DNA from: an uncultured delta proteobacterium
Lineage (GTDB): Bacteria; Myxococcota_A; UBA9160; SZUA-336
NCBI GenBank assembly: GCA_963704165.1
Contig: CAVPHD010000004.1
Location: forward strand, 192,001-256,000
Reading direction: 5' to 3'
DNA: 64,000 bases
The first letter of the stretch is position 1. Each line of letters begins with the position of its first letter. Both the position numbers and the translations under genes were made by a program. The notes under the pieces are model-generated. The model was not told where the DNA came from and did not search any database. It saw only the letters and a program-made list of their open reading frames with translations. Positions 13,880 through 34,224 of the stretch are shown in pieces.

Positions 13880-13916
13880 CGCCGCGTTTGCACGCGGGAG
13901 TACGGTGTCACTGTCA

Positions 13917-14441
13917 ATGAAGACGAACTCCGAAATGAGCGAGATCCCGGCCGTTGTCGTGGCCCAGGTGAACGGCCGCGTGGTGAACCAGAACGCGACC
14001 GCCCGTCGCCTGATGGGAGACGGCGAAGGCCGCGACTGCTGGCACGTCGTCGGAGGTCTGAAGGACGCGGAAGGCTTGCCGTGTCGCACGGGCTGCGTCC
14101 GTGAGCTGCTCGCGAGCGGAATGGACCGCGCCCGGCACACGCGCATCTCGCTCGCCGGGCGACAGCACTCCCTGACCTGCGTGCCGATCGAGGGCGCGGT
14201 CGTCTGTTCGCTGAGCTCGCCCTCGGCGCAGCAGCCGGAGACGTGGGAGCTGCTCACCGCGCGCGAGCGCGACGTGCTTCGGCTTCTCGCGCTCGGAAAG
14301 ACCGACCGCGCGATCGCGGCCGACCTCGGGCTCAGCAGCTCGACGGTGCGAACCCACGTCGAGCACATGCGCTCCAAGCTCGGCGTCGGCACGCGGGCCG
14401 CGTTGGTCGCCCGCGGCTTCGACCTGGGTTTCCTGTGCTGA
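13917..14441 (+). CDS. LuxR-family HTH regulator with PAS-like Cys-containing N-terminus
   Basis: LTARERDVLRLLALGKTDRAIAADLGLSSSTVRTH; N-terminal NQNATARRLMG..CWH..CRTGC. Confidence 0.85.
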   Translation: MKTNSEMSEIPAVVVAQVNGRVVNQNATARRLMGDGEGRDCWHVVGGLKDAEGLPCRTGCVRELLASGMDRARHTRISLAGRQHSLTCVPIEGAVVCSLSSPSAQQPETWELLTARERDVLRLLALGKTDRAIAADLGLSSSTVRTHVEHMRSKLGVGTRAALVARGFDLGFLC

Positions 14442-14488: not shown

Positions 14489-14607
14489 TCGCAGCAGATC
14501 CGACCCTGCCTAGGATCTCGCCGGATTTCCATCCGGACGTTTTCGATTCCAAGACGGGAATGGTGCCGTCTTGTTGTGTCGCCTCCAACCGACCGAGGGA
14601 GCCAGAA

Positions 14608-16931
14608 ATGAGCAATGAGAAGAGGAACCTAGCCCAAGTACTGCACGACAAGAAAACGTGGTGGGTCCACTTTCTGATCGTCGCTGCAATCTGTCTGAGC
14701 GGGCTCGTCTATCTCGGCACGGAGACCTACTACGGGGGCTCCGCCGCTCGAGAGCTACGTCTCGACCTCGGGCGAGGTGGTGATCCCGCTCGAGCAGATC
14801 AAGCAGGGTCAGGAGGTCTTCCACCTCCGCGGTCTGATGCTCTACGGCTCCTTCTGGGGTGACGGTGCCGAGCGCGGGCCGGACTTCACGGCCGACGCCC
14901 TGCACCGGACCGCCGTCGCGATGCGGGAGTACTACGAGCGGCACACGGAAGGGGCGCTGACGCAGTACGACAAGGACGCGATCAGGGCCCGGGTGATCCG
15001 CGAGATCAAGACGAACACCTGGAACGAGGGCGCGAAGAACATCGTGGTCAACGATGCTCAGATCCACGCGTTCCAGGAGCTGAAGACGCACTACACCAAG
15101 ATGTTCAACGACCCCGAGTACGCGGAGGCGTTCGAGCCGACGGGATTCATCAGCGACCAGGCCCAGCTCGACGCCCTGTCGGCGTTCTTCTTCTGGGGTG
15201 GTTGGGTTTCCGGCGCGAAGCGGCCGGGTCAGGAGTACAGCTACACGCACAACTGGCCGTACGATCCGGAGGCCGGCAATCTCGCGACGAACGAGACCCT
15301 GATCTGGAGCGTGGTCTCCATCTTCGGACTCTTCCTCGGCGTGCTCGTCATCCTGTACGTCTACGGCCAGTTCAAGGAGGAGGGCGATCCGTTCACGGGT
15401 AACGGGACGTCGCTCACCACGAACGACCTCGAGGTGGGCCGCATCCGCGCTACGCAGAGGGCCTGCTACAAGTTCTTCGTCCTCTCGATCATCCTGTTCG
15501 GGCTCCAGGTTCTCGCGGGAATGCTCGCGGCCACCGACTTCGTTCGCCCGTTCGGGATCTCGCTCGCGAGCATCATCCCGTTCACCGTTCTGCGCAGCTA
15601 CCACACGCTGTTCCAGATCTACTGGTTCTTCATGGCATGGGTCGGCTACACGGTCTTCTTCCTGCCGCGAATCTCGCGAGTTCCGGATGGCCAGCTCTTC
15701 CTGATCAACCTGCTCTTCGCGATCTGCATCGTGACGGGCGTCGGCGCGCTGGTCGGCATCTACGCCGGACAGACCGGAATGATCACCGGTCAGACCGCCT
15801 ACTGGTTCGGAAGCCAGGGCTGGGAGTTCATGGAGCTCGGCCGCGCCTTCCAGTACACGCTGCTCAGCTCGTTCGCGCTGTGGATCTTCATCATCTACCG
15901 CGCGGTCAAGCCGTGGCTGACGACGAAGAACGTCTGGTCGGTTCCTTCGTGGCTGCTCTACGGCAGCGGCATCATGGTCGGCTTCCTGTTCTTCGGGCTG
16001 ATGATCTCGCCCGATCAGAACTGGGCCGTCGCCGACTACTGGCGCTGGATGGTCGTGCACATGTGGGTGGAGGTGACCTTCGAGGTCTTCACCACCGTGA
16101 TCGTCGGCTACATGCTCGTACAGATGGGCCTGATCTCGCGCATGATGTGCGAGCGGGTCATCTTCCTGGCCGTCATGATGTTCCTCGTCACCGCGACGCT
16201 GGGCATCTCGCACAACTTCTACTGGATCGCGAAGCCGACCGGCATCATCGCGGTGGGCGGAGTCTTCTCCACCCTCCAGGTGCTGCCGCTGCTGCTCCTG
16301 ACGCTCGATGCGTGGCGCATGAAGTCCGAGGCGGTCCGCGCGCGGACGCACCTCCTCGCGGGACGGCAGGTCTACGTGATGGAAGGTGTCTGGCTGTACG
16401 TCCTCGCGGTCAACTTCTGGAACATCTTCGGAGCCGGCGTCTTCGGCTCGCTCATCAACCTTCCGATCGTCAACTACTACGAGCACGCGACCTACCTCAC
16501 CGGCAACCACGCACACGCGGCGATGTTCGGTGTGAAGGGCAACATCGCGATCGGCGGAATGCTGTTCTGCGCTCAGCACCTGCTCCCGAACAAGGTCTGG
16601 AACGAGAAGCTGATCCGGACGTCCTTCTGGTCGATGCAGATCGGTCTGCTTGATGATGATGGGTCTGGATCTGTTCCCGGTCGGCGTCTACCAGCTCATG
16701 CTCGTCTTCCGGGAAGGCCTGTGGTTCGCACGGACCCAGGAGGTTCTGACCGGGCCGGTGTGGGCGACCCTGACCTACATGCGCTCGATCGGTGGAACGC
16801 TGTTCATCGTGGGCGGCGTGCTGCCCCTGATCTGGCTGTTCCTGTCCAGGGCCGGCCAGCTTCGGCAGGAGACCCCGGAGCTCGAGCAAGAGGGCGAGTG
16901 GACCGTCTACGAGAAGGACTGGGCAGCGTGA
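14608..16931 (+). CDS. nod: qNor-family protein with NO dismutase (Nod) signature; frameshifts near 14731 and 16650
   Basis: YGSFWGDGAERGPDFTADALH, YTHNWPYDP, RSYH, HMWVEVTFEVF, GISHNFYW, FSTLQVLP, NHAHAAMFG, RSIGG. Confidence 0.85.
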
Positions 16932-16946
16932 GCTGACCCGGACGAG

Positions 16947-17607: not shown

Positions 17608-17895
17608 ATGTGGAAGTACTACGCGCTGATGTTCGTCGCCGTTGCGCTGATTCTCGCGTACACGTACGTTGCGGACCCCTGCCACAAGATGCTTCGAACC
17701 GACTTCGCGAAGGCGAATCCCAACTTCGTGATCCTGGATTCGGAGGCCGAGTCGGGTGCCCCGGAGAGTGTTCACTGCCGGATCTCGTATCAGAAGCCCG
17801 GTGACGACGGGACGTACGAAGACGTCTGGGTCTACCACCGGGGGAGACGGGTTGGGAGTTCTCCCGGGTCAGCGAGTCGGGAGCAAAGAGGCTGA
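17608..17895 (+). CDS. Small membrane-anchored hypothetical protein
   Basis: MWKYYALMFVAVALILAYTYV TM segment; 3' end possibly frameshifted. Confidence 0.55.
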   Translation: MWKYYALMFVAVALILAYTYVADPCHKMLRTDFAKANPNFVILDSEAESGAPESVHCRISYQKPGDDGTYEDVWVYHRGRRVGSSPGSASREQRG

Positions 17896-17944
17896 CCTCC
17901 CCGTGACCTACGGTCCGCATCGCGTATCGGCGAATAGCGGCTGG

Positions 17945-18961
17945 ATGTGTCCCCGTTTCAACTCGGCGAGCCTTTTGCGCATGGTCCGCGAAGTGGCCCC
18001 GGGAGTTCTCGGCTTTCAGATGGGCGTGGAGCTGCGATTGTGGCTTCAGCGTCGGCGGGTCGGTGGAGAGCGCGTGCTTCCGACGGCGCTCTATCTCGAG
18101 ACGTCGAGCTACTGCGCCGGCGCCTGCGCCAATTGCTATGTGCCGGCCGTCGATCGTCGCCAACACCTCCAACTCGATGTCGGCATGCTCGATCGTCTGC
18201 TCGTCGCTGCAGAGAAGCTGCCGATCGCGTACGTCTGCATCGTCGGTGGCGAGCCGCTGGACCCATCGATCGTCGATCTCAACTTGCGCCTCGTGCGCGA
18301 GCACCCGCGCACGCGGTTCCTGATCTGCACGAGCGGTGAGCCGGAGATCGGGCCGGAGCTCGGACGCGAGCTCGGTGCGCTCCGCAACCTCTCCCTTCTG
18401 ATCTCGTTCGAAGGCCTTCCCGAGACGCATCAGAGCATCCGCCCCCGCGGCTCCTTCGACAACGCGAGCGCCGCCTTGGATGCCTACCGTCGCTACAGCG
18501 GCAGTCTGTGCGGAGCGAGCGTCACGCTCCGTCCGGACAACTGGCAAGAGGCCACGGGTCCGGAGTTCTTCCGGCAGCTCACGAGCGCGGGTGCTCAGTA
18601 CTTCGTCTACGCTCCGTGTGAGACCCGAACCGGGAACCAGATGCTGAGCCCGGAGCTGCACGCCAGCGCTCTCGATCGACTCGCCGAGCTCTCCGCATCG
18701 TCGAGTGCGCTGGTCTTCTCGTACCCCTTCGGACAGATCCAGGGACGACGAATCGCGCCCGCTCGACGCTTTCGTTCCCTCACCGTGGACTACCTGGGCA
18801 ACGTCTACATCGCGCGCCGTGGTGCGTGCTTCGGCAACGTCTACGACACCGACCTCGCTACGCTGCTCTCTCGGCCCGCGCTCCAGACCGCGTACAGTCA
18901 GGCCGCCGCTGGCCCCGCCCACTGGCGTCCGACGTCGGTGCCGACGGGCGCTTGGACCTGA
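17945..18961 (+). CDS. Radical SAM protein of unknown function
   Basis: CAGACANCY, GGEP, ISFEG; start uncertain. Confidence 0.8.
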   Translation: MCPRFNSASLLRMVREVAPGVLGFQMGVELRLWLQRRRVGGERVLPTALYLETSSYCAGACANCYVPAVDRRQHLQLDVGMLDRLLVAAEKLPIAYVCIVGGEPLDPSIVDLNLRLVREHPRTRFLICTSGEPEIGPELGRELGALRNLSLLISFEGLPETHQSIRPRGSFDNASAALDAYRRYSGSLCGASVTLRPDNWQEATGPEFFRQLTSAGAQYFVYAPCETRTGNQMLSPELHASALDRLAELSASSSALVFSYPFGQIQGRRIAPARRFRSLTVDYLGNVYIARRGACFGNVYDTDLATLLSRPALQTAYSQAAAGPAHWRPTSVPTGAWT

Positions 18962-18979
18962 GCTCGACGATTCACGTCC

Positions 18980-19597
18980 TCACAGGTAGAGGCAGACGTA
19001 GAGCACGGGCCAGATGCCGACGGCGAAATACCACGAGATGCACGCGGCCGAGAAGGCGCTGCTACTCAGCGCGGCCCTCGCGGGGACGTTCTCATCGCGG
19101 AAGGGCTTGAGGCGCAGCCAGATGACGCTCAGGAAGCTCAGCGTCCCCACCACGTGCAAGGCGTGCATTCCGACGATGATGCAGAAGAACACGCCGTGAT
19201 CGCTCGAGGTCAGCGTCAGGCCGTCGTCGATCAAGTTGCGCCACACGATGCCCTGGAAGAACAGGAAGAAGCTGCCCAGAACGATCGCGGCCAGGAGGAG
19301 TGGACCGATTCGCGCGTCTCGATTGTCCCAGGTGCGCGCTGCCCGGAACACGAGGGCGCCGCTTGCCAGCAGTGCGGCGGTGTTGATCGCGGTCTCGCCC
19401 AGCGGGAACCAAGGCTGATTCGGGGGCGGCCAGACGGTGCCATCTACCGATCGCGTCAGCATGAACGCGGTCACCATTCCGAGGAACATCATCGCCTCGG
19501 AGACCACGATGACGATCATCGCGACCATGCCGCGATCGATCGCGAATCGGCGCGCGCGTCGATGCGGCTGAATCGAGACCACGTTCTGTCCGCTCAT
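18980..19597 (-). CDS. Heme-copper oxidase subunit III / NorE-like membrane protein
   Basis: SEAMMF, NTAALLASG, GMHALHV, WYFAVGIW. Confidence 0.78.
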   Translation of the reverse strand: MSGQNVVSIQPHRRARRFAIDRGMVAMIVIVVSEAMMFLGMVTAFMLTRSVDGTVWPPPNQPWFPLGETAINTAALLASGALVFRAARTWDNRDARIGPLLLAAIVLGSFFLFFQGIVWRNLIDDGLTLTSSDHGVFFCIIVGMHALHVVGTLSFLSVIWLRLKPFRDENVPARAALSSSAFSAACISWYFAVGIWPVLYVCLYL

Positions 19598-19719
19598 GCG
19601 CTGGACTCCCGCACGGGGCCGCTCGTCGGTGGGCACCACCGTCACGGCTTTCGAACGAATCGCATTCTATCAGTCGGCGACGCCGTCCGCCCAGGTCCGG
19701 CGGCAGAGGCTTCGGAAGC

Positions 19720-20934: not shown

Positions 20935-22617
20935 ATGCGCCATCTCGCAACGAATCGCACCCACTCTTTCGAACGAGCCCTCGCCCTGACGGCGCGAGTG
21001 CTCGGGTGCGTGCTCGCGATCGCGATCCTGGCGGGGTCCGCGTTTGCGGCCGAGCCCGCCAAGACCCCGGCGGTGGTCAAGCAGCCGGTGCCGAAGCTCA
21101 CCCCTGCCGAGCTCGCGGAGGGCACGCAGATCTACTTCGATCGCTGTGCGGGCTGCCATGGAACGCTTCGCAAGGGCGCGACCGGACCGAAGATCGACGA
21201 CGAGGCGATGCTCGAGAAGACTCTTTCGAAGCTCGAGGAAGTCATTCACGACGGCACCGACGCCGGCATGCCGGGCTGGGGCCGCACCGGCGAGATGACC
21301 GCGGCGCAGACCAAGCTGATGGCGAAGTTCCTGCAGAACCCGCCTCCGATTCCGCCCGAGATGAGCCTCGCGGACATGAAGAAGAGCCACAAAGTCTACG
21401 TGCCCGTCGACAAGCGGCCGACGAAGCCGCAGCACAAGTACGACGTGGACGAGCTCTTCGGCGTGATTCTGCGCGACGCGGGCAAGGGCGCGATCATCGA
21501 CGGCAAGAGCAAGGAGCTCATGACCGTCGTCGACACCGGCTTCGCGGTCCACATCTTCCGCTCGTCGGGGACCGGCCGCTACTTCTACACGATCGGCCGC
21601 GACGGCAAGGTGAGCCTGATCGACCTGTTCGCAGCCAAGCCCACCGTGGTCGCCGAGGTTCGAACTTGTTCCGACGCGCGCAGCGTCGAGGTTTCGAAGT
21701 ACAAGGGTCCGAAGGGCGACTTCGTCGACAAGCTCGCGATCGTCGGCTGCTACTGGCCGCCGCAGCTCGTGATCCTCGACGGGCAGACGCTCGAGCCCAA
21801 GAAGGTCATCTCCACCCGATCGATGACCTACGACACCAACGAGTACCACCCCGAGCCGCGCGTTGCGACGATCATCGCTTCGCACTTCGACACGGAGTGG
21901 GTCATCGCGATCAAGGAGACGGGTCTCGTCTGGCTGCTCGACTACTCGGACCTCGTCAACGTCAAGATGCACCAGATCGAGACCGAGCGGTTCCTCCACG
22001 ACGGCGGATGGGACGCGACGAAGCGCTACCTGCTGATCGCCGCCAACATGCGCGACCAGATGGTCGTCGTGGATACGAAGGAGAAGAAGTTCGTCACCAA
22101 GTTCGAGACCGGCGTGAAGCCCCATCCCGGGCGTGGCGCGAACTGGGACGATCCGGAGTTCGGTCCGGTGAGCGCGACCACGCACCTCGGCGAGGGGAAG
22201 ATCACGGTCTACGGATCCGACCCCGCGGGTCATCCGCAGCACGCGTGGAAGATCGTGCGTGAGCAGGAGACGGCGGGTCCGGGTCTCTTCCTCAAGACCC
22301 ACCCGAAGAGCGAGAACGTCTGGACCGACGCGACCTTCGCGAAGGACGGCAACTCGAATCAGACGATCTGTGTCTTCAAGAAGAAGAGCTTCGACGACGG
22401 CGCCCAGTGTTTCGAGGCGACCAAGCACGGGAAGATCGTGCACTTCGAGTACAACAAGGCCGGCGACGAGGTCTGGGCGTCCGTCTGGGACAGGAAGGGC
22501 GTGCTGATCGTCTACGACGACAAGACGCTCGAGGAGAAGGCTCGGATCGAGGCGGACTGGCTGGTGACTCCCACCGGGAAGTGGAACGTCTACAACACCG
22601 TTCACGACGTCTACTGA
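20935..22617 (+). CDS. nirS: Cytochrome cd1 nitrite reductase
   Basis: CAGCHGTLRKGATG, GRDG, YWPP, YHPEPRVA, FLHDGG, PHPGRGAN, TPTGKWNV. Confidence 0.96.
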   Translation: MRHLATNRTHSFERALALTARVLGCVLAIAILAGSAFAAEPAKTPAVVKQPVPKLTPAELAEGTQIYFDRCAGCHGTLRKGATGPKIDDEAMLEKTLSKLEEVIHDGTDAGMPGWGRTGEMTAAQTKLMAKFLQNPPPIPPEMSLADMKKSHKVYVPVDKRPTKPQHKYDVDELFGVILRDAGKGAIIDGKSKELMTVVDTGFAVHIFRSSGTGRYFYTIGRDGKVSLIDLFAAKPTVVAEVRTCSDARSVEVSKYKGPKGDFVDKLAIVGCYWPPQLVILDGQTLEPKKVISTRSMTYDTNEYHPEPRVATIIASHFDTEWVIAIKETGLVWLLDYSDLVNVKMHQIETERFLHDGGWDATKRYLLIAANMRDQMVVVDTKEKKFVTKFETGVKPHPGRGANWDDPEFGPVSATTHLGEGKITVYGSDPAGHPQHAWKIVREQETAGPGLFLKTHPKSENVWTDATFAKDGNSNQTICVFKKKSFDDGAQCFEATKHGKIVHFEYNKAGDEVWASVWDRKGVLIVYDDKTLEEKARIEADWLVTPTGKWNVYNTVHDVY

Positions 22618-22632
22618 TCGGAGGAAGGATTC

Positions 22633-23242
22633 ATGCAGCGTCTCCTGATCGCGGTCGTATCCGCGTGCGTCTTGGGTCTCGTATCGGGACCGGCGCACGC
22701 GGACGGAAAGAAGCCCCACCAGTTCGCCGGGGCCGTGAAGTGCCGGTCCTGCCACGAGAAGGACGAGATCGGAAACCAGTACGGGAAGTGGCTGGACTCG
22801 AAGCACGCAAAAGCTTGGAGCACGCTCGCGTCCGACAAGGCGAAGGAGTGGGGCAAGAAGCGGGGGATCGACGATCCCCAGGCTTCCGACAAGTGCGTCA
22901 AGTGCCACGTTGCCGCGCACGGCGAGCCCAAGCCGCGTCTCAGCATGAAGTACTCCCCCAAGGAGGGCGTGACCTGCGAGGCGTGCCACGGCCCGGGAAG
23001 CGACTACCGGAAGAAGAAGATCATGATGAACCAGGACGAGGCGGTGAAGAGGGGCCTCGATCCTGCAGACCGAGAAGGTCTGTCTGACCTGCCACAACGA
23101 CGAGAGCCCGGCTTGGGATCCCGCACGCTACAAGCTGGCCGGCGGCAAGACGGCGGGGTTCGACTACGAGCAGGCGAAGAAGGCGATCGCTCATCCCGTG
23201 CCCGAGGGGTACGACCCCTCGAAGGACAGCGGGGACGAGTAG
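22633..23242 (+). CDS. Periplasmic tetraheme cytochrome c (c554-like); frameshift near 23060
   Basis: Signal peptide; CRSCH, CVKCH, CEACHGPGS, CLTCH. Confidence 0.82.
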
Positions 23243-23267
23243 AGAATGCTGGACGAGGAGGGGCACG

Positions 23268-23889
23268 GTGAAGAGCTCGGGTAAGCGCGTTCTAGCCGCG
23301 ACCTGGACGGTCCTCGGCGGAGCTCTCGTCACCGTCCTCATGCTCTTCACGCTCCAGTGCTCCCACGACAAGGACGGGAGTCGCAGCGACTACCCGAGTC
23401 GCACTACTTCCACCCGAGCCCGCGCCCGTGCTCCTGGCCAGCCCCGAGCCGAGCGACGACTACTTTCCCTGCAGCGACTGCCACGACGAGACCATGAAGA
23501 CCAATCGAGCGCGCCGCGATGCTCGAGGACGATCACGACGATCTCGAGGCTCGCTCACGGAGATCTCTGGTGCCTGCAGTGCCACGTCGGCCGAGGACCG
23601 CGACTTGCTGCACCTCTCCGACGACACGGCCGTCGAGTTCGGGGAATCCTGGAAGCTCTGCACGCAGTGCCACGGAAAGAAACTCGCGGATTGGCAGGCG
23701 GGAGTGCACGGAAAGCGCACCGGTCACTGGTGGGGGCCGAAGGAGTACCGGACCTGCGTCTCCTGCCACGATCCTCACTCGCCGCGCATTCAAGGGAATC
23801 GAGCCGCGACCGCGGCCCCGGCGACCGGAAGAGATCCGCCGCGCGGCCGCCGTCGCCGAGGAAGCGCGTCCGCAGGAGGTCTCCGATGA
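23268..23889 (+). CDS. Membrane-anchored tetraheme cytochrome c (frameshifted)
   Basis: N-terminal TM; CSDCH, CLQCH, CTQCH, CVSCHDPH across frames. Confidence 0.75.
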
Positions 23890-24820
23890 AATCCGATGAT
23901 CGCGACGCGCCGCTCGACGCGAAGGGAGCCTCCCGGCGCAAGTTCCTGCGCACCGCAGTCGCGGGAGCGGCGGCGGTCACGGGGGTTGGCGCGCTCACCG
24001 GCTGCGAGTTCGACCTCGAGAGCGTGCTGCAGAGGCCATTTCCGCGAGATGTCGCGCGCGGATCTCGACCGGGTCCTCGAGCGGCTCCAGAAGAAGTACT
24101 CCACGCGTTACGGCGAAGGACGTGAAGGTCACCGCGACCGGGCCGATCGACGGGGTCGTCTTCGGCTACGGCCTCGACATCTCGCGCTGCGTCGGCTGTC
24201 GCAAGTGCGTGTACGCCTGCGTGGACGAGAACAACCAGTCGCGGGATCCGCAGATCCAATGGATCCGCGTCCTCGAGTTCGAGCGCGACCAGGTGATCCG
24301 CGGGATCAACCTCGAGGACGGCAACCCCTACTACGAGCACGAGCAGGTTCCCGCGGAGGACAAGATGTACCTCCCCGTCGCCTGCCAGCACTGCGACGAC
24401 TCTCCGTGCACGCAGGTCTGCCCGACGGGGGCGACGTGGATGGAGCCCGACGGAATCGTCGTGATCGACTACGACTGGTGCATCGGCTGCCGCTACTGCA
24501 TGGCGGCTTGCCCGTACGGCGCGCGCAAGTTCAACTGGGGCGAGCCGAATCTCCCCGCCGACGAGGTGAATCCGGACATGCACCTCCTCGGCAATCGCCC
24601 CCGGGCGCGGGGCGTCGTCGAGAAGTGCAGCTTCTGCATCCAGCGCGTGCGCGACGGGCGCTACCCCGCATGCCTAGAGGCGTGTCCGGTGGGCGCGCGG
24701 AAGTTCGGAAATCTCCTCGACCCGAACAGCGAGATCCGGCAGCTGCTCGCGACCAAGCGCACGTTCGTGCTCAAAGCCGAGCTCGAGACCCATCCCAAGT
24801 TCTTCTACTTCTGGGGCTGA
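23886..24820 (+). CDS. Tat-exported NrfC/PsrB-type 4x[4Fe-4S] protein (frameshifted at 5' end)
   Basis: SRRKFLR; CVGCRKCVYAC, CQHCDDSPCTQVCP, CIGCRYCMAACP, KCSFC, PACLEACP. Confidence 0.88.
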
Positions 24821-24824
24821 TTCG

Positions 24825-26049
24825 ATGAACTCGGTTCTCCACTTCTGGCGCTTCATCGACGGCAGCGCGCGCGTGGTGGCGCGCGGCAATGCCGCGGCTA
24901 CTACGCGTGGCTCGGTCTCCTCGTGGCGGCTGATCGTGATCGGCGTCCTCGCATTCGGAAACCAGACTCAGAACGGCCTGATCGTCTCGAACATGCGCGA
25001 TCAGGTCTCCTGGGGCTTCTACATCGGGAACTTCGCCTTCCTCGTCGGTGTGGCCGCGGCGGCGGTCATCCTGGTGATTCCCGCCTACGTGTACAGGTGG
25101 GGACCGATCAAGGAGGTGGTGATCCTCGGCGAGATCCTCGCGGTCTCCGCGATCATCATGTGCATGCTCTTCGTCGCGATCGACGTCGGACGCCCCGACC
25201 GGTTCTGGCACCTGTTTCCTGGTGCCGGGACGCCGCACTTCCCCAGCTCGCTGCTGGTCTGGGACATCCTCGTCCTGAACGTCTACTTCGTGATCAACTT
25301 GTTCGTCGTCACCTACCTCGTCTTCAAGAGCTACATGGGCCAGCAGTACAACGTCGTCGTTCATCATGCCGGTGATCTTCCTCTCGATCCCGTTGGCGGT
25401 CGAGCATTCACACCGTGACCGCGTTCCTGTTCATGGGGCTGAAGTCGCGGCCGTTCTGGAACAGCGCGATCCTCGCGCCGCGCTTCCTCGCGAGCGCGTT
25501 CTGCTCCGGCCCGGCGCTGATGGTCCTGATCTTCTCGATGCTTCGGTCGGTTCGCCCGATTCCGATCTCCGGACACGGCGCTGCGAAAGATCGGCGAGCT
25601 GCTTGCCTACGCGATGGCGGCCAACCTGTTCTTCCTCGGCTGCGAGGTCTTCCGCGAGTTCTACTCGGCCAGCGCTCACTCGGTCCACGCCGAGTTCCAG
25701 TGGTTCGGGATCGAGGAGCGCGGAATCGCCGGCTACACGTGGTTCGCGCTCGCCTGCAACTCCATCGCGTTCGTGATCTTCCTGGTCCCCGCGCTGCGCG
25801 ACCGCATCCGGACCTCTGAGCGTGGGCTGTGCGCTCGCGGTGATGGGGGTCTTCATCGAGAAGGGCCTGGGACTTCTGCTCCCCGGGCTCACACCCGACG
25901 CGCTCGGCGAGGTCTACCACTACACCCCGAGCGTGAACGAGGTGCTCGTCGGCCTCGGGATCTGGGCCATCGGGGCGCTCTGCTTCACGCTGATGACGAA
26001 GGTCTCCATCGCCATCACGCTCGGCGAGTTCCGCCACCAGAAGACCTGA
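24825..26049 (+). CDS. NrfD/PsrC-family membrane quinol-interacting subunit (frameshifted)
   Basis: VSWGFYIGNF, DVGRPDRFWH, FPSSLLVWD, RPFWNSAILAPRF, YTPSVNE. Confidence 0.85.
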
Positions 26050-26104: not shown

Positions 26105-26536
26105 CTACTTCGGTCCCGGGAGCGTGCGCACGAAGGCGACCATTCCCCAGATCTTCTCGTCGCTCCACGACTTGTCGGAGCCGGGGCCGAAGGCGGGCAT
26201 CTGCGAGCGCGGTGCGCCGCCCTTGAGGATCTGCCAGAAGAGCTGTCCGTCGGTTCGAGTTCCCATGTACGCGGAATCGGTGAGATCGACCGGTGGAACG
26301 GCTTGCCCCGTGGCCTCGTCGCCTCCGCCGTCGCCATTCGCACCGTGACAGCGCGCGCAGTTTGCCTTGAACTGTTTTGCGAAATAGGCCTGCTTCTTCG
26401 CGTCGAGCACGACCGGGTTCGTCGTCGTCGCGATCTCGGGCGGTGTATCGTCGCGCGCCGTCGATGACGATGCGCAGGCGAGAACCGCCACGAAGATCGG
26501 GATCGACAGAAGGCCGGTGATACGAGTCGGGTGCAT
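26105..26536 (-). CDS. Monoheme cytochrome c lipoprotein
   Basis: VLAC lipobox, CARCHG, MPAF. Confidence 0.82.
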   Translation of the reverse strand: MHPTRITGLLSIPIFVAVLACASSSTARDDTPPEIATTTNPVVLDAKKQAYFAKQFKANCARCHGANGDGGGDEATGQAVPPVDLTDSAYMGTRTDGQLFWQILKGGAPRSQMPAFGPGSDKSWSDEKIWGMVAFVRTLPGPK

Positions 26537-26559: not shown

Positions 26560-28020
26560 TCAGGGTTCGAGGCGCGTCTTGTTCCAGGCGTTGTACTTCC
26601 CGACCGGCATCGCGAAGGGCAGGCGCGCGACCTCCGCGAGGCTCCGCGAGTCGTAGGCGACGACGGCTCCTTCCGAGTGCCAGACGCTCACGAGTGCACG
26701 GTCTCCCTCCTTGGTGAACTCCGTGTGCATGGCGATCTTGCCGGGCGCCGGCACCAGAGCCTTCGCTCGAAGCTCGAGCGTGTCCTTGCGGACGAGCTGG
26801 ATCGCCTCGGTATTCGTGTCCACCCAGAGAAAAGGCGTCCCCGGGTGCGTGCGCACGAAGTATCCCTCTCCGCGCAGTGCGATCTCCTTCACGACCTCGA
26901 AGCGATCGAGCCGCACGATCGAGAGCCGCGGCGCGCCCGCGTGATTGAACGCGGCGTACGGCACCCCGTCGCGCTCGAAGAAGCACGAGGAGAAGAGGTG
27001 CGGCAATCCCTCCGTCGTCAGGGAACCGGCCTCGGCGCCCCGTTCGAGATCCCACAGGATCAACCGGGTTCCCCCGCGCGAGCTCGCGACGAGCTTCCGC
27101 GTACCGGGAACGAACGCGAAGTCCTCGAAAGGCTCCGGTAGATCGATCTGGCGAATCGAGAGATCGTCGGTGGACAGGAACAGCATTCGCGGTGAGTCGC
27201 GCAGCGTCAGCACGAAGCGGTCCTCGCCCGGCAGCGCGTAGACCGCGCTCGGTTTGCCGTCGAGGGCAAGCGAGGCGAGCGGGCGAAGATCGCCGTCGAG
27301 CACGACGAGAGATGCCGGGAGTTGATTCGCCACGACGACGCGGTCTCCGGCCGCGGAGATCGCGAGATTTCGCGTGTTGGCCGCGACCTTGATCCGTGCG
27401 ACCGGACGCCCGCGCGCGAGGTCGTAGAGAACGACCGTCCCGTCGCGGGTGGCGGCGACGACCTTCGTGAAGGCCGAGTCGAACTTGGGCCCGCCGTGGA
27501 TCTTTCCGGCGTCGAAGCGGTCGAGCTCGCGAAGCGAGTCACCGTCGAGAACGGCGATCCGCCCCGCGTCGCGCTCGACGACGAGGATGATGTTCTCGCG
27601 GTGGACCTCGGATGAAATCCTGTCCGCGTTGGCGGAAAACTCGGTCCGGCTTCGCGCGGCATCCTCGGTTCCCCAGGTGACCGACTCGACCGGTGTTCGC
27701 ATGAACGCGACCAGGCGCGCGGTCGTCGATTCGTCGACGACCGCGCGGAACGGCGGCATCTGGGTCGCGGGAAGTCCGTCGCGGATCACGGCGGCGAGCG
27801 TCGCGTCGTCCCTGCGTGCGAGTAGGTCCGGAAGCAGAGGCGGCGCGTAGCCGCCGTAACGGCGCTCTCCGTGACACGACGCGCAATGCTCCTGGTAGAC
27901 CGTGGCGGCCTCGGGCGTGTCCGCGGCGTGCGCGGGCGCGACGGGGATGAGCGTGAGGGACGACGAGATCCATCCGAGTAGGAGCAGCGCATTCACGTGG
28001 GGCATTGTAGCGAGGTGCAT
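26560..28020 (-). CDS. nirN: NirN, dihydro-heme d1 dehydrogenase
   Basis: CASCHG plus d1-type propeller: HGGPKF, RDG, PHL, FVRTHP, HTEFT, MPVGKYN. Confidence 0.85.
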   Translation of the reverse strand: MHLATMPHVNALLLLGWISSSLTLIPVAPAHAADTPEAATVYQEHCASCHGERRYGGYAPPLLPDLLARRDDATLAAVIRDGLPATQMPPFRAVVDESTTARLVAFMRTPVESVTWGTEDAARSRTEFSANADRISSEVHRENIILVVERDAGRIAVLDGDSLRELDRFDAGKIHGGPKFDSAFTKVVAATRDGTVVLYDLARGRPVARIKVAANTRNLAISAAGDRVVVANQLPASLVVLDGDLRPLASLALDGKPSAVYALPGEDRFVLTLRDSPRMLFLSTDDLSIRQIDLPEPFEDFAFVPGTRKLVASSRGGTRLILWDLERGAEAGSLTTEGLPHLFSSCFFERDGVPYAAFNHAGAPRLSIVRLDRFEVVKEIALRGEGYFVRTHPGTPFLWVDTNTEAIQLVRKDTLELRAKALVPAPGKIAMHTEFTKEGDRALVSVWHSEGAVVAYDSRSLAEVARLPFAMPVGKYNAWNKTRLEP

Positions 28021-29654: not shown

Positions 29655-30866
29655 GTGGGCTATGCTGCCACCATGCTCCCCGTCAGCGATTTGCTCGAGG
29701 TCGCGCGCCGGTCCGTTTCCGGAACCGACGTCGGTGCGCGCGCGCCCGCGCGGTTCGCGCCCCCCGGCGATGTGCCGTTCGTCGTGGTCTGGAACATCGG
29801 CATCCACTGCAACATGAGCTGTCCGCACTGCTATGCGGCTGCGACCTCGCGGCCCTCCCCGCACGACCTCGATACGAACGAAGGTCTCCGACTGCTCGAG
29901 CAGATGGCCGAGGCAGGCGTTCGCGTGCTGATCGCGAGCGGTGGCGAGCCGCTGCTGCGGCCGGACGTCTTCACGCTCCTCGCTCACGCTCGCGATGTCG
30001 GCCTCTCGCCGCAGTTGTCCACCAACGGTGTGCTGATCGACGAGGAGATCGCGGGCCGTCTCGCCGCCTGCGGCGTCGGGTACGTGGGCGTCAGCCTCGA
30101 CGGACTGCGCGACTGGAACGACGAGTACCGCGGGCTCGCCGGGGGTTTCGATCGCGCGGTCGCCGGCCTCGGGTTCGCGCGGGCCGCGGGCATGCGGACG
30201 GGCGTGCGCATGACCCTCACGCGGCGCAACGTCGATCAGCTCGACGGAGTCGCCTCGATCGCGGTCGAGTGCGGTGCCGACCGCTTCTACGTCTCGCACC
30301 TGGTCGATTCGGGTCGAGGCGCGAAGCTCGTGGGCGACGATCTCGATCGGGGCGAGGGTCGCGAGATGCTCGGGATCCTCTTCGAAACCGCCGAGCGTTG
30401 GCTCGATCGTGGCTGCGCGACGCGCGTCGTGACCGGATCGAACGATTCCGATGGTCCCTTCCTGCTGCGCTGGATCGAAGCGCGTTACGGCGCGGAGGCC
30501 GCCGGTCCGGTCGAGAAGCTCCTGCTCGAGCGCGGCGGCAACTCCGCCGGAGAGCGCATCTTGTCCGTCGATCATCGCGGGCGCGTCCATCCCGATCAGT
30601 TCTGGCGCTCGGCGGTGCTCGGCGAAGTGCGAACGACTCCGTTCGCGGAGATCCTCAAGCATCCGCTGCGCGAGCAGCTTCGCAATCGACTCGCGCACCT
30701 CGAGGGCCGTTGCGGTGCGTGCGGCTATCGCGCGCTCTGCCGCGGCTCGCACCGCGAGCGCGCGATCGCGCGTCACGGCGAGCTCTGGTCGCCGGATCCA
30801 GCGTGCGTCCTCGAGGATCACGAGATCGGCGTAGAGGAAGTTTCGGTCGGAGAGGTGCGCGCATGA
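29655..30866 (+). CDS. nirJ: Heme d1 biosynthesis radical SAM protein
   Basis: VWN..CNMSCPHCY, SGGEPL, FYVSHL, GGNSAG, VHPDQFW, DPAC. Confidence 0.88.
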   Translation: MGYAATMLPVSDLLEVARRSVSGTDVGARAPARFAPPGDVPFVVVWNIGIHCNMSCPHCYAAATSRPSPHDLDTNEGLRLLEQMAEAGVRVLIASGGEPLLRPDVFTLLAHARDVGLSPQLSTNGVLIDEEIAGRLAACGVGYVGVSLDGLRDWNDEYRGLAGGFDRAVAGLGFARAAGMRTGVRMTLTRRNVDQLDGVASIAVECGADRFYVSHLVDSGRGAKLVGDDLDRGEGREMLGILFETAERWLDRGCATRVVTGSNDSDGPFLLRWIEARYGAEAAGPVEKLLLERGGNSAGERILSVDHRGRVHPDQFWRSAVLGEVRTTPFAEILKHPLREQLRNRLAHLEGRCGACGYRALCRGSHRERAIARHGELWSPDPACVLEDHEIGVEEVSVGEVRA

Positions 30867-32041
30867 GGCGGGCCGCGCTCGCGGCGCTCGTCGCCGTGCT
30901 CTCGATCGCTTCCGTCGTCCACGGCTCGGGCGTCGGCTCGCGCGTCTTCGTCGTCGAGCGTTCCTCCGGAACTCTCGCCGTCTACGACCTCGATCAGCGC
31001 GCTCTTCTTCCCGGTCGGATCGAGGGGCTCGGCGACCTCAGTCACGCGACCATGACGTTCACGCCCGATCTGCGCTCGGGATTCCTCGCGACCCGCGGCG
31101 GCAAGGTGACGCGGATCGACCTCGAGACCGCGAAGGCCGCGGGTGAAGTGTTGACGTCGCAGAACTCGATCGACAACGCGATCAGTCAGGACGGACGCTA
31201 TCTCGCCGTCGCCGAGTACAAGCCCGGCGGCGTCACGATCCTCGACGCACGCGACCTCAGCGTGGTTGCAAAGCATGCGGCGAAGTTCGAGCGAGACGGC
31301 CGCACGCTCGAGAGCCGCGTGACCGGGATCGTCGACGCTCCCGGCAACCGCTTCGTATGCGTGCTCATCGAAGCGGGCGAGATCTGGGTGATCGACGCAT
31401 CGAAGCCGGGATTCCCGATCGAACGTCGCATCCCGACACCGCACGCCATGCCGTACGACGCGATGATCACGCCCGATGGCCGGAACTACCTCGTCGGCCA
31501 TCTCGAATCGGCGAAGGTCTCCGTGCTCGACCTCACCCGGCCCGAGGCCGGAGTTCGCGTGATCGACTTCGCCGACCCGAGCTTCGAGCGCGGCGCGCCG
31601 GTCAAGCTGCCGCACATGGCGTCGTGGGCGGTCGCGGGCGATCGGGTCTTCGTTCCGCTCGTCGGCGAGAAGAGGCTCGCGGTACTCGACCGCGCGACGC
31701 TCGCCTTCCAGAGTTCGCTCGCCGTGCGCGGGCATCCGGTGTACGCGGTCCGTTCGCCGACGGAGCGTGAGGTCTGGGTGAGCTTCTCTGGCGAGGAAGA
31801 CGACGCGTTCGTTCAGGTCATCGACGTCGAATCACTCGCGATCAAGGACACGATTCGCCTTGGAGGTCGTATCTACCACATGGACTTCACGCCGCGCGGA
31901 TCGCACGTGCTCGTCACGGCCAATCGCGACAACAAGCTGATCCTCGTGAACGCCGCGACGCGTGAGATCGAAGACGTCGAAGAGCTCGCCTCTCCGTCGG
32001 GGATCTTCGGCGTCTGGCGCGCCTTTCGGATCGGACTCTAG
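30863..32041 (+). CDS. nirF: Heme d1 biosynthesis protein NirF
   Basis: GLGDLSHA, NSI..AISQDG, PYDA, KLPHM..W, SPSGIF; ATGA overlap with nirJ. Confidence 0.88.
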   Translation: MRRAALAALVAVLSIASVVHGSGVGSRVFVVERSSGTLAVYDLDQRALLPGRIEGLGDLSHATMTFTPDLRSGFLATRGGKVTRIDLETAKAAGEVLTSQNSIDNAISQDGRYLAVAEYKPGGVTILDARDLSVVAKHAAKFERDGRTLESRVTGIVDAPGNRFVCVLIEAGEIWVIDASKPGFPIERRIPTPHAMPYDAMITPDGRNYLVGHLESAKVSVLDLTRPEAGVRVIDFADPSFERGAPVKLPHMASWAVAGDRVFVPLVGEKRLAVLDRATLAFQSSLAVRGHPVYAVRSPTEREVWVSFSGEEDDAFVQVIDVESLAIKDTIRLGGRIYHMDFTPRGSHVLVTANRDNKLILVNAATREIEDVEELASPSGIFGVWRAFRIGL

Positions 32042-32043
32042 CG

Positions 32044-33051
32044 ATGGGACTGTCCGATTCGGATCGAAATCGGCTGGTGCGGCACGTGCAGGACGCGATT
32101 CCGTTCGTCGAGAAGCCGTTCGGAGTGATCGCGTCCGATCTCGGGCTCGACGAAGCCGAAGTGCTCGCGGAGCTCTGCGCGCTGCGGGAGTCGGGCCTGC
32201 TCCGCGAGATCTCTGCCGTGCTCGAGGGGAGCGCGCTCGGGTACGACAGCGCGCTGGTCGCGGGCACCGTCGCCCCGGCCGATCTTGCGCGCGTCGTCGA
32301 GGTGGTCAACGCGCACCCGACGGTGACGCACAACTACCTGCGGGAGCACGCGTACAACCTCTGGTTCACGATCGCGGTCCCGGTCGAGATGGGCCTCGAC
32401 GCGACCTTGCGCGCGCTCGCTCGCGCAGCCGGAGTCGAGACCTTCCACGCCCTGCGGCGGACCGTGACCTTCAAGATCGGCGTCAACTTCGATCTCGAGA
32501 CCGGCACCAACAAGACCGAGGCCCAGGAGATCGTCCCGGTCGCACCGATGCACGCGAGCGAGCAGGACCGCCGGATCTTCCGCGCGCTGCAGACGCCGCT
32601 GCCGCTCGTCGCGCGCCCGTTCGACGAGGTCGCGCGCTCGTGCGGATGCTCGACCGACGAATTGCTGCGTTTCGCTCGCTCCCACCTCGGTGGCGCGATT
32701 CGCCGCTACGTGGGCACGCTTCGGCACCGCAAGGCGGGCGTGCGCGCGAACGGAATGGCGGTCTGGCAAGTCGAAGGCGGCGACGTGGAGCGGGTCGGCC
32801 GCAGGCTCGCTGCCGCTCCCGAGGTCAGCCACTGCTACGCGCGAAATTCGATCGCCGGATTCCCGTACACCGTCTACAGCATGCTGCACGCGCCCACGCG
32901 CGAGGCGTGCCTGTCGATCGCGGCCGGGCTTTCCGAGCAGATCGCCGTCTCCGACTACGTGGTCCTGTTCAGCGTCGAGGAGTACAAGAAGGTCAGGCTT
33001 CGCTACTTCCTGCCCGAGCTCGACCAGTGGTGGGAGGCGCATCGCCGCTAG
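32044..33051 (+). CDS. nirDL: Fused siroheme decarboxylase (NirDL/AhbAB type)
   Basis: Two Lrp-like halves: VTHNYLREHAYNLWFT and HRKAGVRANGM...VSHCYAR...YSMLH. Confidence 0.85.
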   Translation: MGLSDSDRNRLVRHVQDAIPFVEKPFGVIASDLGLDEAEVLAELCALRESGLLREISAVLEGSALGYDSALVAGTVAPADLARVVEVVNAHPTVTHNYLREHAYNLWFTIAVPVEMGLDATLRALARAAGVETFHALRRTVTFKIGVNFDLETGTNKTEAQEIVPVAPMHASEQDRRIFRALQTPLPLVARPFDEVARSCGCSTDELLRFARSHLGGAIRRYVGTLRHRKAGVRANGMAVWQVEGGDVERVGRRLAAAPEVSHCYARNSIAGFPYTVYSMLHAPTREACLSIAAGLSEQIAVSDYVVLFSVEEYKKVRLRYFLPELDQWWEAHRR

Positions 33052-33084: not shown

Positions 33085-34224
33085 TCACTTCGACTCGATC
33101 ACCCCCGGTGCCTTGATCTGCTCCAAGAGATCGTTGTCCCACTCGCCCTCGACCACGACGTGCGCCGCGGCTCCCTTCAGGACCGCGTCGATCAGGTTGT
33201 GGTTCAGGTACACGTACAGACCCGGCTGCTCGAACGTGTAGAGAGCCGCTCCAGCGGTTCCGCCCGGAATGAACCAGGTCTCCTGGTTCGTCTGGGGCGG
33301 ATCGTTGAAGGAGCCCGTCGCCCACACGAAATCCCCGTGACCGCCGATCAGGTGCGGTCGAGTGTCTCGATTGGCCTGCGAGTGGAGGAACAGGACGGTC
33401 TCTCCGACGTTGGCCTTGAGTGCATGCTCGCCGGTCAGCGCGCCCACGGCGCCATTGAACACGACATGGCTGGGCTCGTTGGTGAGCATCACTTCGAGCG
33501 TGTCGGGCATGGCGGTCAAGACCGAGTCGAAGTTCTTGTACTTCCCATCGCTACCCTTGGGAATGTAGAGATCCTGCTCGCCGATGTAGTACGCGCGGTC
33601 GTAGTGTAGCGGGTTCCCCTTCGGATCCTTCAGGCCGTCGCGTGGAAGAACCATGATCGCGCCGTTCATTCCCGTCACGACGTGGTAGGGGATCATCGCG
33701 CCGCCGGGCGCACAGTGGTAGACGAAGACGCCGGGCTTGGTCGCCTTGAAGCGAATCGTCGCTTCCTGGCCGGGAGCGATCAGCGAGAGACCCGCGCCCC
33801 CGAGCGCGCCCGTGGCGGCGTGGAAGTCGATGTTGTGACTCATCACGTTGCCAGGGAAACCATCCCAGTGCTCCGGATTTGCGACGCCGGGCGCTTTTCG
33901 GGGTCTGTTGACCAGTGTGAGCTCCACGTAGTCGTTCTGGTGCACGACGATCATCGGCCCCGGAACGGTTCCCTGAAAGGTCATCGCATTGATCGTCGTT
34001 CCGTCCGGATCGATGACGAGCCTGCGTTCCTCGACCTCGAGTCGGACCTCGACGATCCTCGGGCCACCGTCGGCCTTCTGCGAGTGCTTCGGGAGCAACG
34101 GCGGTGCCACGAGGACCTGCTTCACGCGCGGAAGCCCCTTGGCCTTCGAAGGCTTGTCCGCCAGCACCGTGGCTGCGGGGAAGCAGATGGCAACGGCCAG
34201 GAACGCGCAGGCGACTCGTTTCAT
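33085..34224 (-). CDS. nirK: Copper-containing nitrite reductase
   Basis: [35 protein letters not shown]. Confidence 0.96.

Follow-up and report, generated by a model that had tools for sequence, protein, structure and literature searches.

The nirS locus and its conservation

The window analysed here is a 64,000-nucleotide (nt) stretch of contig CAVPHD010000004.1 from an uncultured delta proteobacterium of the Myxococcota whose genome assembly is 84% complete and divided among 12 contigs. Within it, nirS and the four genes that follow form a compact run joining a nitrite reductase to a candidate electron-transfer module. The nirS gene (20935..22617, + strand) is intact and encodes a nitrite reductase of the cytochrome cd1 type that has a single heme c motif (E 8e-122 against Cytochrom_D1; E ~1e-165 against cd1 structures). 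The first module gene, cytA (22633..23242, +), encodes a c554-like tetraheme cytochrome with a signal peptide (PF13435, E 7e-16; CxxCH motifs at 22741, 22894, 22975, and 23081) that is predicted to be a soluble carrier. The second, cytB (23246..23899, +), encodes a tetraheme cytochrome with an N-terminal membrane helix (CxxCH motifs at 23470, 23571, 23659, and 23755). These are followed by a gene for a DsrO-like iron-sulfur (Fe-S) protein (23887..24820, +), assigned to the 4x[4Fe-4S] type and to export by the twin-arginine translocation (Tat) pathway on the basis of an RRKFL twin-arginine leader and four cluster motifs, and by a gene for a DsrP-like membrane protein of the NrfD family (24825..26049, +; PF03916). 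Fifteen nt separate nirS from cytA, 3 nt separate cytA from cytB, and 4 nt separate the Fe-S gene from the NrfD-family gene; the cytB and Fe-S genes overlap. The original prediction had described this order, strand, and spacing of nirS, two tetrahemes, a Tat Fe-S protein, and an NrfD-type gene correctly, and its statement that the run (20935..26049) contains neither a molybdopterin subunit nor nrfA was borne out. No terminator-like site was found on the module strand between 20300 and 26700, and the region upstream of nirS yielded no sigma-70 promoter and no common FNR-type box, a loose match to the latter being present in 2 of 8 relatives and none in the window.

The gene order is conserved in relatives and is therefore not a product of chance. 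Sixteen of 151 genomes of the class carry nirS, and 15 of the 16 NirS proteins, including that of the window, form a single clade with 100/100 support. The original prediction had proposed a survey of neighbourhoods containing nirS and NrfD, and this survey upholds the association, with cytA lying directly after nirS in all 15 genomes of the clade. The whole run is on one contig in 13 of the 15, the NrfD-family gene being cut by the contig end in 3 of these; the run is split over two contigs in G223 and cut inside cytA in G865 (G, L, and C numbers are our handles for genomes, loci, and contigs). Gaps between module genes at 12 loci are mostly below 70 nt or replaced by overlaps. The sixteenth nirS genome, G015, has a divergent nirS without the module, and its module precedes napA. 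The Fe-S protein family occurs in 27 of the 151 genomes, and no nirS was found in 12 of those 27. Outside the class we fetched 11 nirS genomes, leaving out three second nirS copies; none of the 11 has the module adjacent to nirS, and cytB occurs elsewhere in 7 of them. Six of the 11 fetched NirS proteins carry a second heme motif. More generally, NirS proteins without the module (L182-L185, L190-L192) often have a second CxxCH together with about 100 extra residues, which, judged from sequence, is perhaps a fused donor cytochrome.

Identity and relatives of the module proteins

The last two module genes had been labelled NrfC and NrfD in the original prediction. That label was mistaken and should read DsrO/DsrP-like, since the best NCBIfam matches are DsrO and DsrP. 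The Fe-S protein scores 195.6 bits against DsrO and 120.5 against NrfC, and 16 cysteines are present in 13 of 14 orthologues. Intact orthologues of the NrfD-family protein score 366-367 bits against DsrP, above its cut-off of 350, and do not match the NrfD model at 1e-8. The membrane protein has the hallmarks of an NrfD-family quinol subunit: it has 9-10 hydrophobic segments, as compared with the 8-10 helices expected, and it retains the Tyr/Asp/Ser/Asp of the quinol site and the gate Lys, equivalents of the DsrP residues Tyr52/Asp106/Ser124/Asp129/Lys329 assigned in PMC8076601. A cryo-EM study reports menadiol bound at the DsrP quinol site (bioRxiv 10.64898/2026.08.25.746951). Genes of this kind exceed the score used to annotate DsrP, which should not be read as a sign of sulfate reduction.

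A module combining DsrO-like and DsrP-like proteins with a tetraheme cytochrome (DsrOhPh-tetrahaem, or DsrOhPhCyt) occurs in cable bacteria, some Desulfobulbales, and Beta- and Gammaproteobacteria; its function is called unknown and quinol-to-periplasm transfer is proposed (PMC13047784; bioRxiv 10.64898/2026.08.25.746951). We compared the window module with loci of O-P-cytochrome order from Burkholderiales and Desulfobacterota, using canonical dsrMKJOP loci as controls. The O-P-cytochrome order was inferred from consecutive accessions in Table S3 of PMC13047784, and the DsrPh stand-ins were picked by gene order; no Table S3 accession was found among the listed members of 10 clusters, and the relatives of the stand-ins include a Sulfuritalea sp. 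member. The original prediction had also called for an NrfD phylogeny that included Act proteins. Trees were built with FastTree on 165 rows and with IQ-TREE on thinned sets of 46 and 22 rows; they place the window protein in the DsrP-like group with ActC as outgroup. More precisely, it falls in a clade of cytochrome-O-P order (100/98), apart from the O-P-cytochrome clade (100/99) and from canonical DsrP (98/97). Joint monophyly of the first two against canonical DsrP is supported at only 62/63, and the trees give no firm branching order among the three. One quinol-site residue is Asp in the window protein versus His in 7 of 7 O-P-cytochrome rows. Across the loci inspected for this position (L164-L172, L204-L213), all seven aligned O-P-cytochrome DsrP homologues share that His with ActC, and canonical DsrP has Asp.

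The window module satisfies a broad definition of DsrOhPh, having a DsrO/DsrP-like pair outside a dsrMKJOP operon and an adjacent homologous tetraheme with predicted His-His ligation. Both contain a DsrO-like protein, a DsrP-like protein, and a tetraheme that has four further invariant His, and both lie away from dsrMK; the cytB profile matches the O-P-cytochrome tetrahemes at 87-119 bits and does not match DsrJ. The locus contains no dsrMK, and the only other NrfD protein of the genome is ActC. The two differ in gene order, O-P-cytochrome there and cytochrome-O-P here, and the window module has in addition a c554-like gene and the link to nirS; the main text of PMC13047784 makes no mention of nirS. 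Because the clades are separate and well supported and the quinol site has Asp rather than His, the module, compared with the stand-ins, is probably a sister subfamily of DsrOhPh-tetrahaem and not a member of the cable-bacteria DsrPh clade.

Other known systems fit less well. DsrJOP of the DsrMKJOP complex resembles the module in passing the DsrP cut-off, in its quinol-site residues, and in its cytochrome/Fe-S/NrfD order. Here, however, there is no adjacent dsrM or dsrK, a tetraheme takes the place of the triheme DsrJ, and the membrane protein lies in a clade apart from canonical DsrP; dsrM, dsrK, and triheme dsrJ were not found in the window or in the loci of relatives and were present in the control loci. 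Geobacter Cbc4 (CbcSTU) likewise combines an anchored tetraheme, a 4x[4Fe-4S] protein, and an NrfD-type subunit without a catalytic subunit; it hands electrons to a soluble periplasmic cytochrome, and its CbcS is 160 aa long (bioRxiv 10.1101/2025.04.14.648717). That length fits a second module that adjoins ours in Geobacter-type loci, whose cytochrome scores 20-28 bits against the cytB profile and whose NrfD lies far outside the DsrP-like group; CbcS length and NrfD placement both speak against membership, the Cbc4 stand-ins having been identified by length and layout. Enteric NrfBCD shares the plan of a multiheme, an Fe-S protein, and an NrfD protein feeding a periplasmic nitrite reductase, but in the window the partner makes nitric oxide (NO) rather than ammonium, the NrfC score of 120 falls short of its cut-off of 378, the NrfD equivalog is missed as well, and a locus-level search found no nrfA. 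Alternative complex III is excluded as an identity for the module, a separate and full act cluster being present on C5.

Of the two cytochromes, cytB has four invariant extra His, and all of its hemes are predicted to be bis-His. The cytA family profile aligns with Nitrosomonas cytochrome c554 (1bvb) over all four hemes (E 4e-18). Cytochrome c554 likewise serves as a carrier, linking a periplasmic enzyme with a quinone-linked cytochrome in the membrane (PMC9250108), although the expected direction is opposite to that proposed here and no HAO is encoded in the locus. Assignment to the CycA equivalog was rejected (69.5 bits against a cut-off of 400, no HAO context), and the wider PF13435 family applies. 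Structure models had low confidence (mean pLDDT 53.5 for cytA and 57.4 for cytB), and fold searches with them gave no match at E <= 0.001, the top row for cytA being c554 at E 0.019. A predicted complex of NirS with cytA and four hemes scored 0.00 and counts neither way. We discarded the idea of cytA as a basic shuttle between acidic partners, as its net charge ranges from -10 to +4 in 10 orthologues. In the cytA tree, a 100/100 clade of 19 comprises all 14 nirS-adjacent sequences, 2 linked to napAB, 1 upstream of nirJ, 1 truncated at a contig end, and 1 alone, and paralogues outside it lie mostly by porin-decaheme, NapC-like, or cytochrome b genes. A second c554-like tetraheme type with a longer charged tail (L243-L255) accompanies porin-decaheme (MtrAB-like), NapC-like, or cytochrome b sets in many genomes of the class and is possibly a general periplasmic carrier.

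The homology to c554 raises the alternative that cytA binds or reduces NO, as proposed for c554, and that the membrane module recharges it so as to buffer the NO made by NirS. Cytochrome c554 contains a five-coordinate heme, and reduction of nitrite or NO by it has been observed in vitro, yet the role assigned to it is electron transfer (PMC9250108). Beyond the heme motifs, cytA has just three invariant candidate ligands, two His and one Met, which may leave one heme without a sixth ligand. The fourth site could nonetheless be occupied by an N-terminal His that is nearly invariant, and paralogues with the same ligand pattern stand by porin-decaheme genes with no NO context. We judge an NO-directed role for cytA very unlikely.

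Probable electron supply to NirS

The four genes after nirS are, in our assessment, a probable electron supply line for NirS, in which electrons would run from quinol through the DsrP-like protein, the Fe-S protein, cytB, and cytA to the heme c of NirS. The DsrP-like protein would oxidize quinol, the DsrO-like protein and membrane-anchored cytB would carry the electrons into the periplasm, and c554-like cytA would shuttle them to NirS. The transfer of electrons from quinol to nitrite is strongly downhill. This route is the best reading of the module because every one of the 15 genomes of the NirS clade keeps the nirS link and the membrane protein retains its quinol-site residues. The linked module is real, conserved, and probably functional. 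We infer that the genes are co-transcribed, that electrons flow in this direction and pass the carriers in this order, and that the chain makes contact with NirS. On this reading, the module would be a portable quinol-to-periplasm adapter, attached to nirS once in this lineage, that does the job of NirT with other parts and bypasses alternative complex III. Protons would be released to the periplasm, as described for DsrP in bioRxiv 10.64898/2026.08.25.746951.

Several observations weigh against a supply line reserved for NirS. The nirS-module linkage is tight but single in origin, the 15 cases counting as one origin since their NirS proteins form a single clade, and in 3 of 12 loci, with start codons called automatically, the gap between nirS and cytA widens to 170-320 nt. 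Across the phylum, cytB is found in 84 of 301 genomes and nirS in 20 of 301; among the best 80 cross-phylum loci, many of them short, nirS stands beside the core in 3, all repeats of contigs already counted. Close orthologues lie by napAB in G284 and G068, and by porin-multiheme or other multiheme clusters in G013, G019, and G034, genomes in which nirS was not found. In 4 of the 15 nirS genomes, the module has a nap operon behind it, encoded on the same strand. NirS has another possible source of electrons as well, since the host genome encodes a full alternative complex III along with several monoheme cytochromes. Finally, none of the four module genes is a single open frame in this assembly.

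The occurrence of the module beside other enzymes bears most directly on its specificity. The NrfD clade whose members are accompanied by cytA has 16 rows, of which 9 are linked to nirS, 2 lie in nir clusters without a visible nirS, 2 follow napAB, and 3 stand by porin-multiheme or other multiheme genes. Copies of the three-gene core without nirS are widespread, and the core extends to many other phyla. Because close copies adjoin napAB or porin-multiheme clusters, the module type is not specific to NirS, and "dedicated" holds for the operon in this lineage only. The original prediction had named homologs that consistently partner another catalytic enzyme as the outcome that would tell against it. 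That outcome is seen in part: napAB and porin-multiheme partners do occur, and the nirS link is constant within the NirS clade. Its claim of a dedicated quinol-to-NirS pathway is partly supported, the quinol route being the best reading and exclusiveness failing for the module type. In its distribution, the module acts like a portable adapter, repeatedly turning up beside nitrogen-oxide reductases.

Taken further, these neighbourhoods would make the module a general quinol-to-periplasm hub for all nitrogen-oxide reductases (NirS, NirK, NosZ, Nap, and heme-copper NO reductase), co-regulated with nirS and not dedicated to it. The same NrfD and cytA clades appear by napAB in G284 and G068, and more distant copies adjoin napA in G015 and four Desulfobacterota loci. 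The host genome itself also encodes NirK (33085-34224, -; above the model cut-off and in the same cluster as nirS), a Sec-type NosZ-like protein (1-696, -; running off the window start, with frame breaks), and a heme-copper oxidase on C7 that we take to be eNOR-like. Nevertheless, cytA is the first gene after nirS in all 15 genomes, and the nap operons behind the nirS loci have their own NapG/NapH-like genes, so that we regard a general hub as unlikely. The four Desulfobacterota loci (L198-L201) have the order octaheme cytochrome, cytB, Fe-S, NrfD, tetraheme, napA and are candidate conduits for nitrate ammonification; in G068 (L181:2062-15688), two napA genes stand in tandem, each with its own cytB/Fe-S/NrfD module.

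The broken frames invite a different explanation, that the module is a decaying set of pseudogenes here, with alternative complex III and small cytochromes supplying NirS instead. Alignment to the orthologues, which are intact in relatives, locates 14 breaks in 3.4 kb: 1 in cytA (near 23059), 5 in cytB, 2 in the Fe-S gene, and 6 in the NrfD-family gene; a fifteenth near 23280, spotted by eye, would bring cytB to 6. There are none in the coding parts of nirS, nirN, nirJ, nirF, nirDL, or nirK. Against decay, 13 of the 14 breaks are one extra base and none is an in-frame stop, all eight heme motifs and all four cluster motifs survive, and the identity of the module genes to G007 (73-90%) is similar to that of nirS (84%). 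Moreover, the motifs of EF-G and CarB are also spread over different frames in this assembly, and a genome-wide frame-switch scan, which also counts gene junctions and is used for the pattern only, shows breaks that are patchy and fall across unrelated genes. The breaks are very probably assembly or sequencing errors, and decay of the module is quite improbable. Elsewhere in the same assembly, C5 ends in a second, shorter rpoB/rpoC pair (near 303600-307700), possibly a misassembly or contamination, in addition to the intact pair on C9.

The genes that converge on the module suggest a reversed flow, from periplasmic cytochromes, for example in NirN heme d1 maturation, into the quinone pool. A monoheme cytochrome c gene (26105..26536, -), presumably NirC-like from its position, adjoins a nirN-like gene for heme d1 biosynthesis (26560..27987, -) and faces the module, as it does in relatives. 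In most loci this pair of genes lies directly against the module, and NrfD-family complexes such as Qrc run towards quinone (PMC8076601). In this window, however, nirN is on the opposite strand from the module. Cofactor maturation also needs little flux, which counts against reversal. DsrP, the nearest structurally studied relative, oxidizes quinol (bioRxiv 10.64898/2026.08.25.746951), and we consider reversed flow very improbable.

With electrons running towards NirS, the module would do by other means what is known from Pseudomonas. A bc1-independent quinol route from NirT to NirM to NirS is described in PMC9600427, so that the concept of a quinol route to NirS, inferred in the original prediction, is not new. 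In both cases, following that account, a nir-associated membrane protein oxidizes quinol and a soluble cytochrome carries the electrons to NirS; NirT is one NapC-family tetraheme, whereas here three unrelated membrane subunits and a c554-like carrier would be used. We found no description of the module-nirS link in a literature search that left subscription papers mostly outside: a phylogeny of NirS mentions NrfD 0 times (PMC10999283), and PMC10732223, PMC11896075, PMC10926707, and three preprints also lack the link. In the 84%-complete genome, no NapC/NirT protein scored above the cut-off, no close napA was found, and no canonical bc1 was found, the sole cytochrome b match being a fusion in a heme-copper oxidase cluster. 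That cluster (L194:6738-11508, on C7) contains a heme-copper oxidase, SCO, and a cytochrome b/Fe-S/MvhD fusion, and clusters like it lie directly upstream of nirS in several relatives.

If the proposed route is correct, NirS could receive electrons by a further means in addition to complex III and NirT, with consequences for the energy that these uncultured organisms gain from denitrification. A lineage with a nirS-attached module and sister copies by napAB and porin-cytochrome genes offers the module family a concrete, testable job, namely quinol-to-periplasm export to interchangeable terminal reductases. A bolder and unlikely extension is that NirS, cytA, and the DsrOP-like proteins assemble into a dedicated quinol:nitrite oxidoreductase that may translocate protons. 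It would be the first complex of the NrfD family to be coupled to an enzyme producing NO, its c554-like subunit may in addition bind NO at a heme with a free site, and the widespread DsrOP-plus-tetraheme family would thereby gain a first physiological role.

Neighbouring genes

Beyond nirN, the heme d1 biosynthesis genes nirJ, nirF, and nirDL (29655..33051, +) are intact. Four kb upstream of nirS lies a gene for a qNor-family protein (14560-16936, +), frame-broken near 16660, in which one His of the usual pair is replaced and whose motifs we take to be Nod-like. The original prediction had considered the nirS pathway suited to high NO output. This is unsupported: close homologues of the Nod-like protein occur in 16 of the 151 class genomes, 9 of which lack nirS, and only 7 of the 15 genomes with the nirS-linked module have one. 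A LuxR-type gene (13905-14441) stands beside the Nod-like gene, and LuxR regulators beside nod have been noted (bioRxiv 2023.11.21.568154). Between the Nod-like gene and nirS (17608-19645) lie a small open reading frame (ORF), a radical-SAM-like ORF without a family match, and a COX3-like gene.

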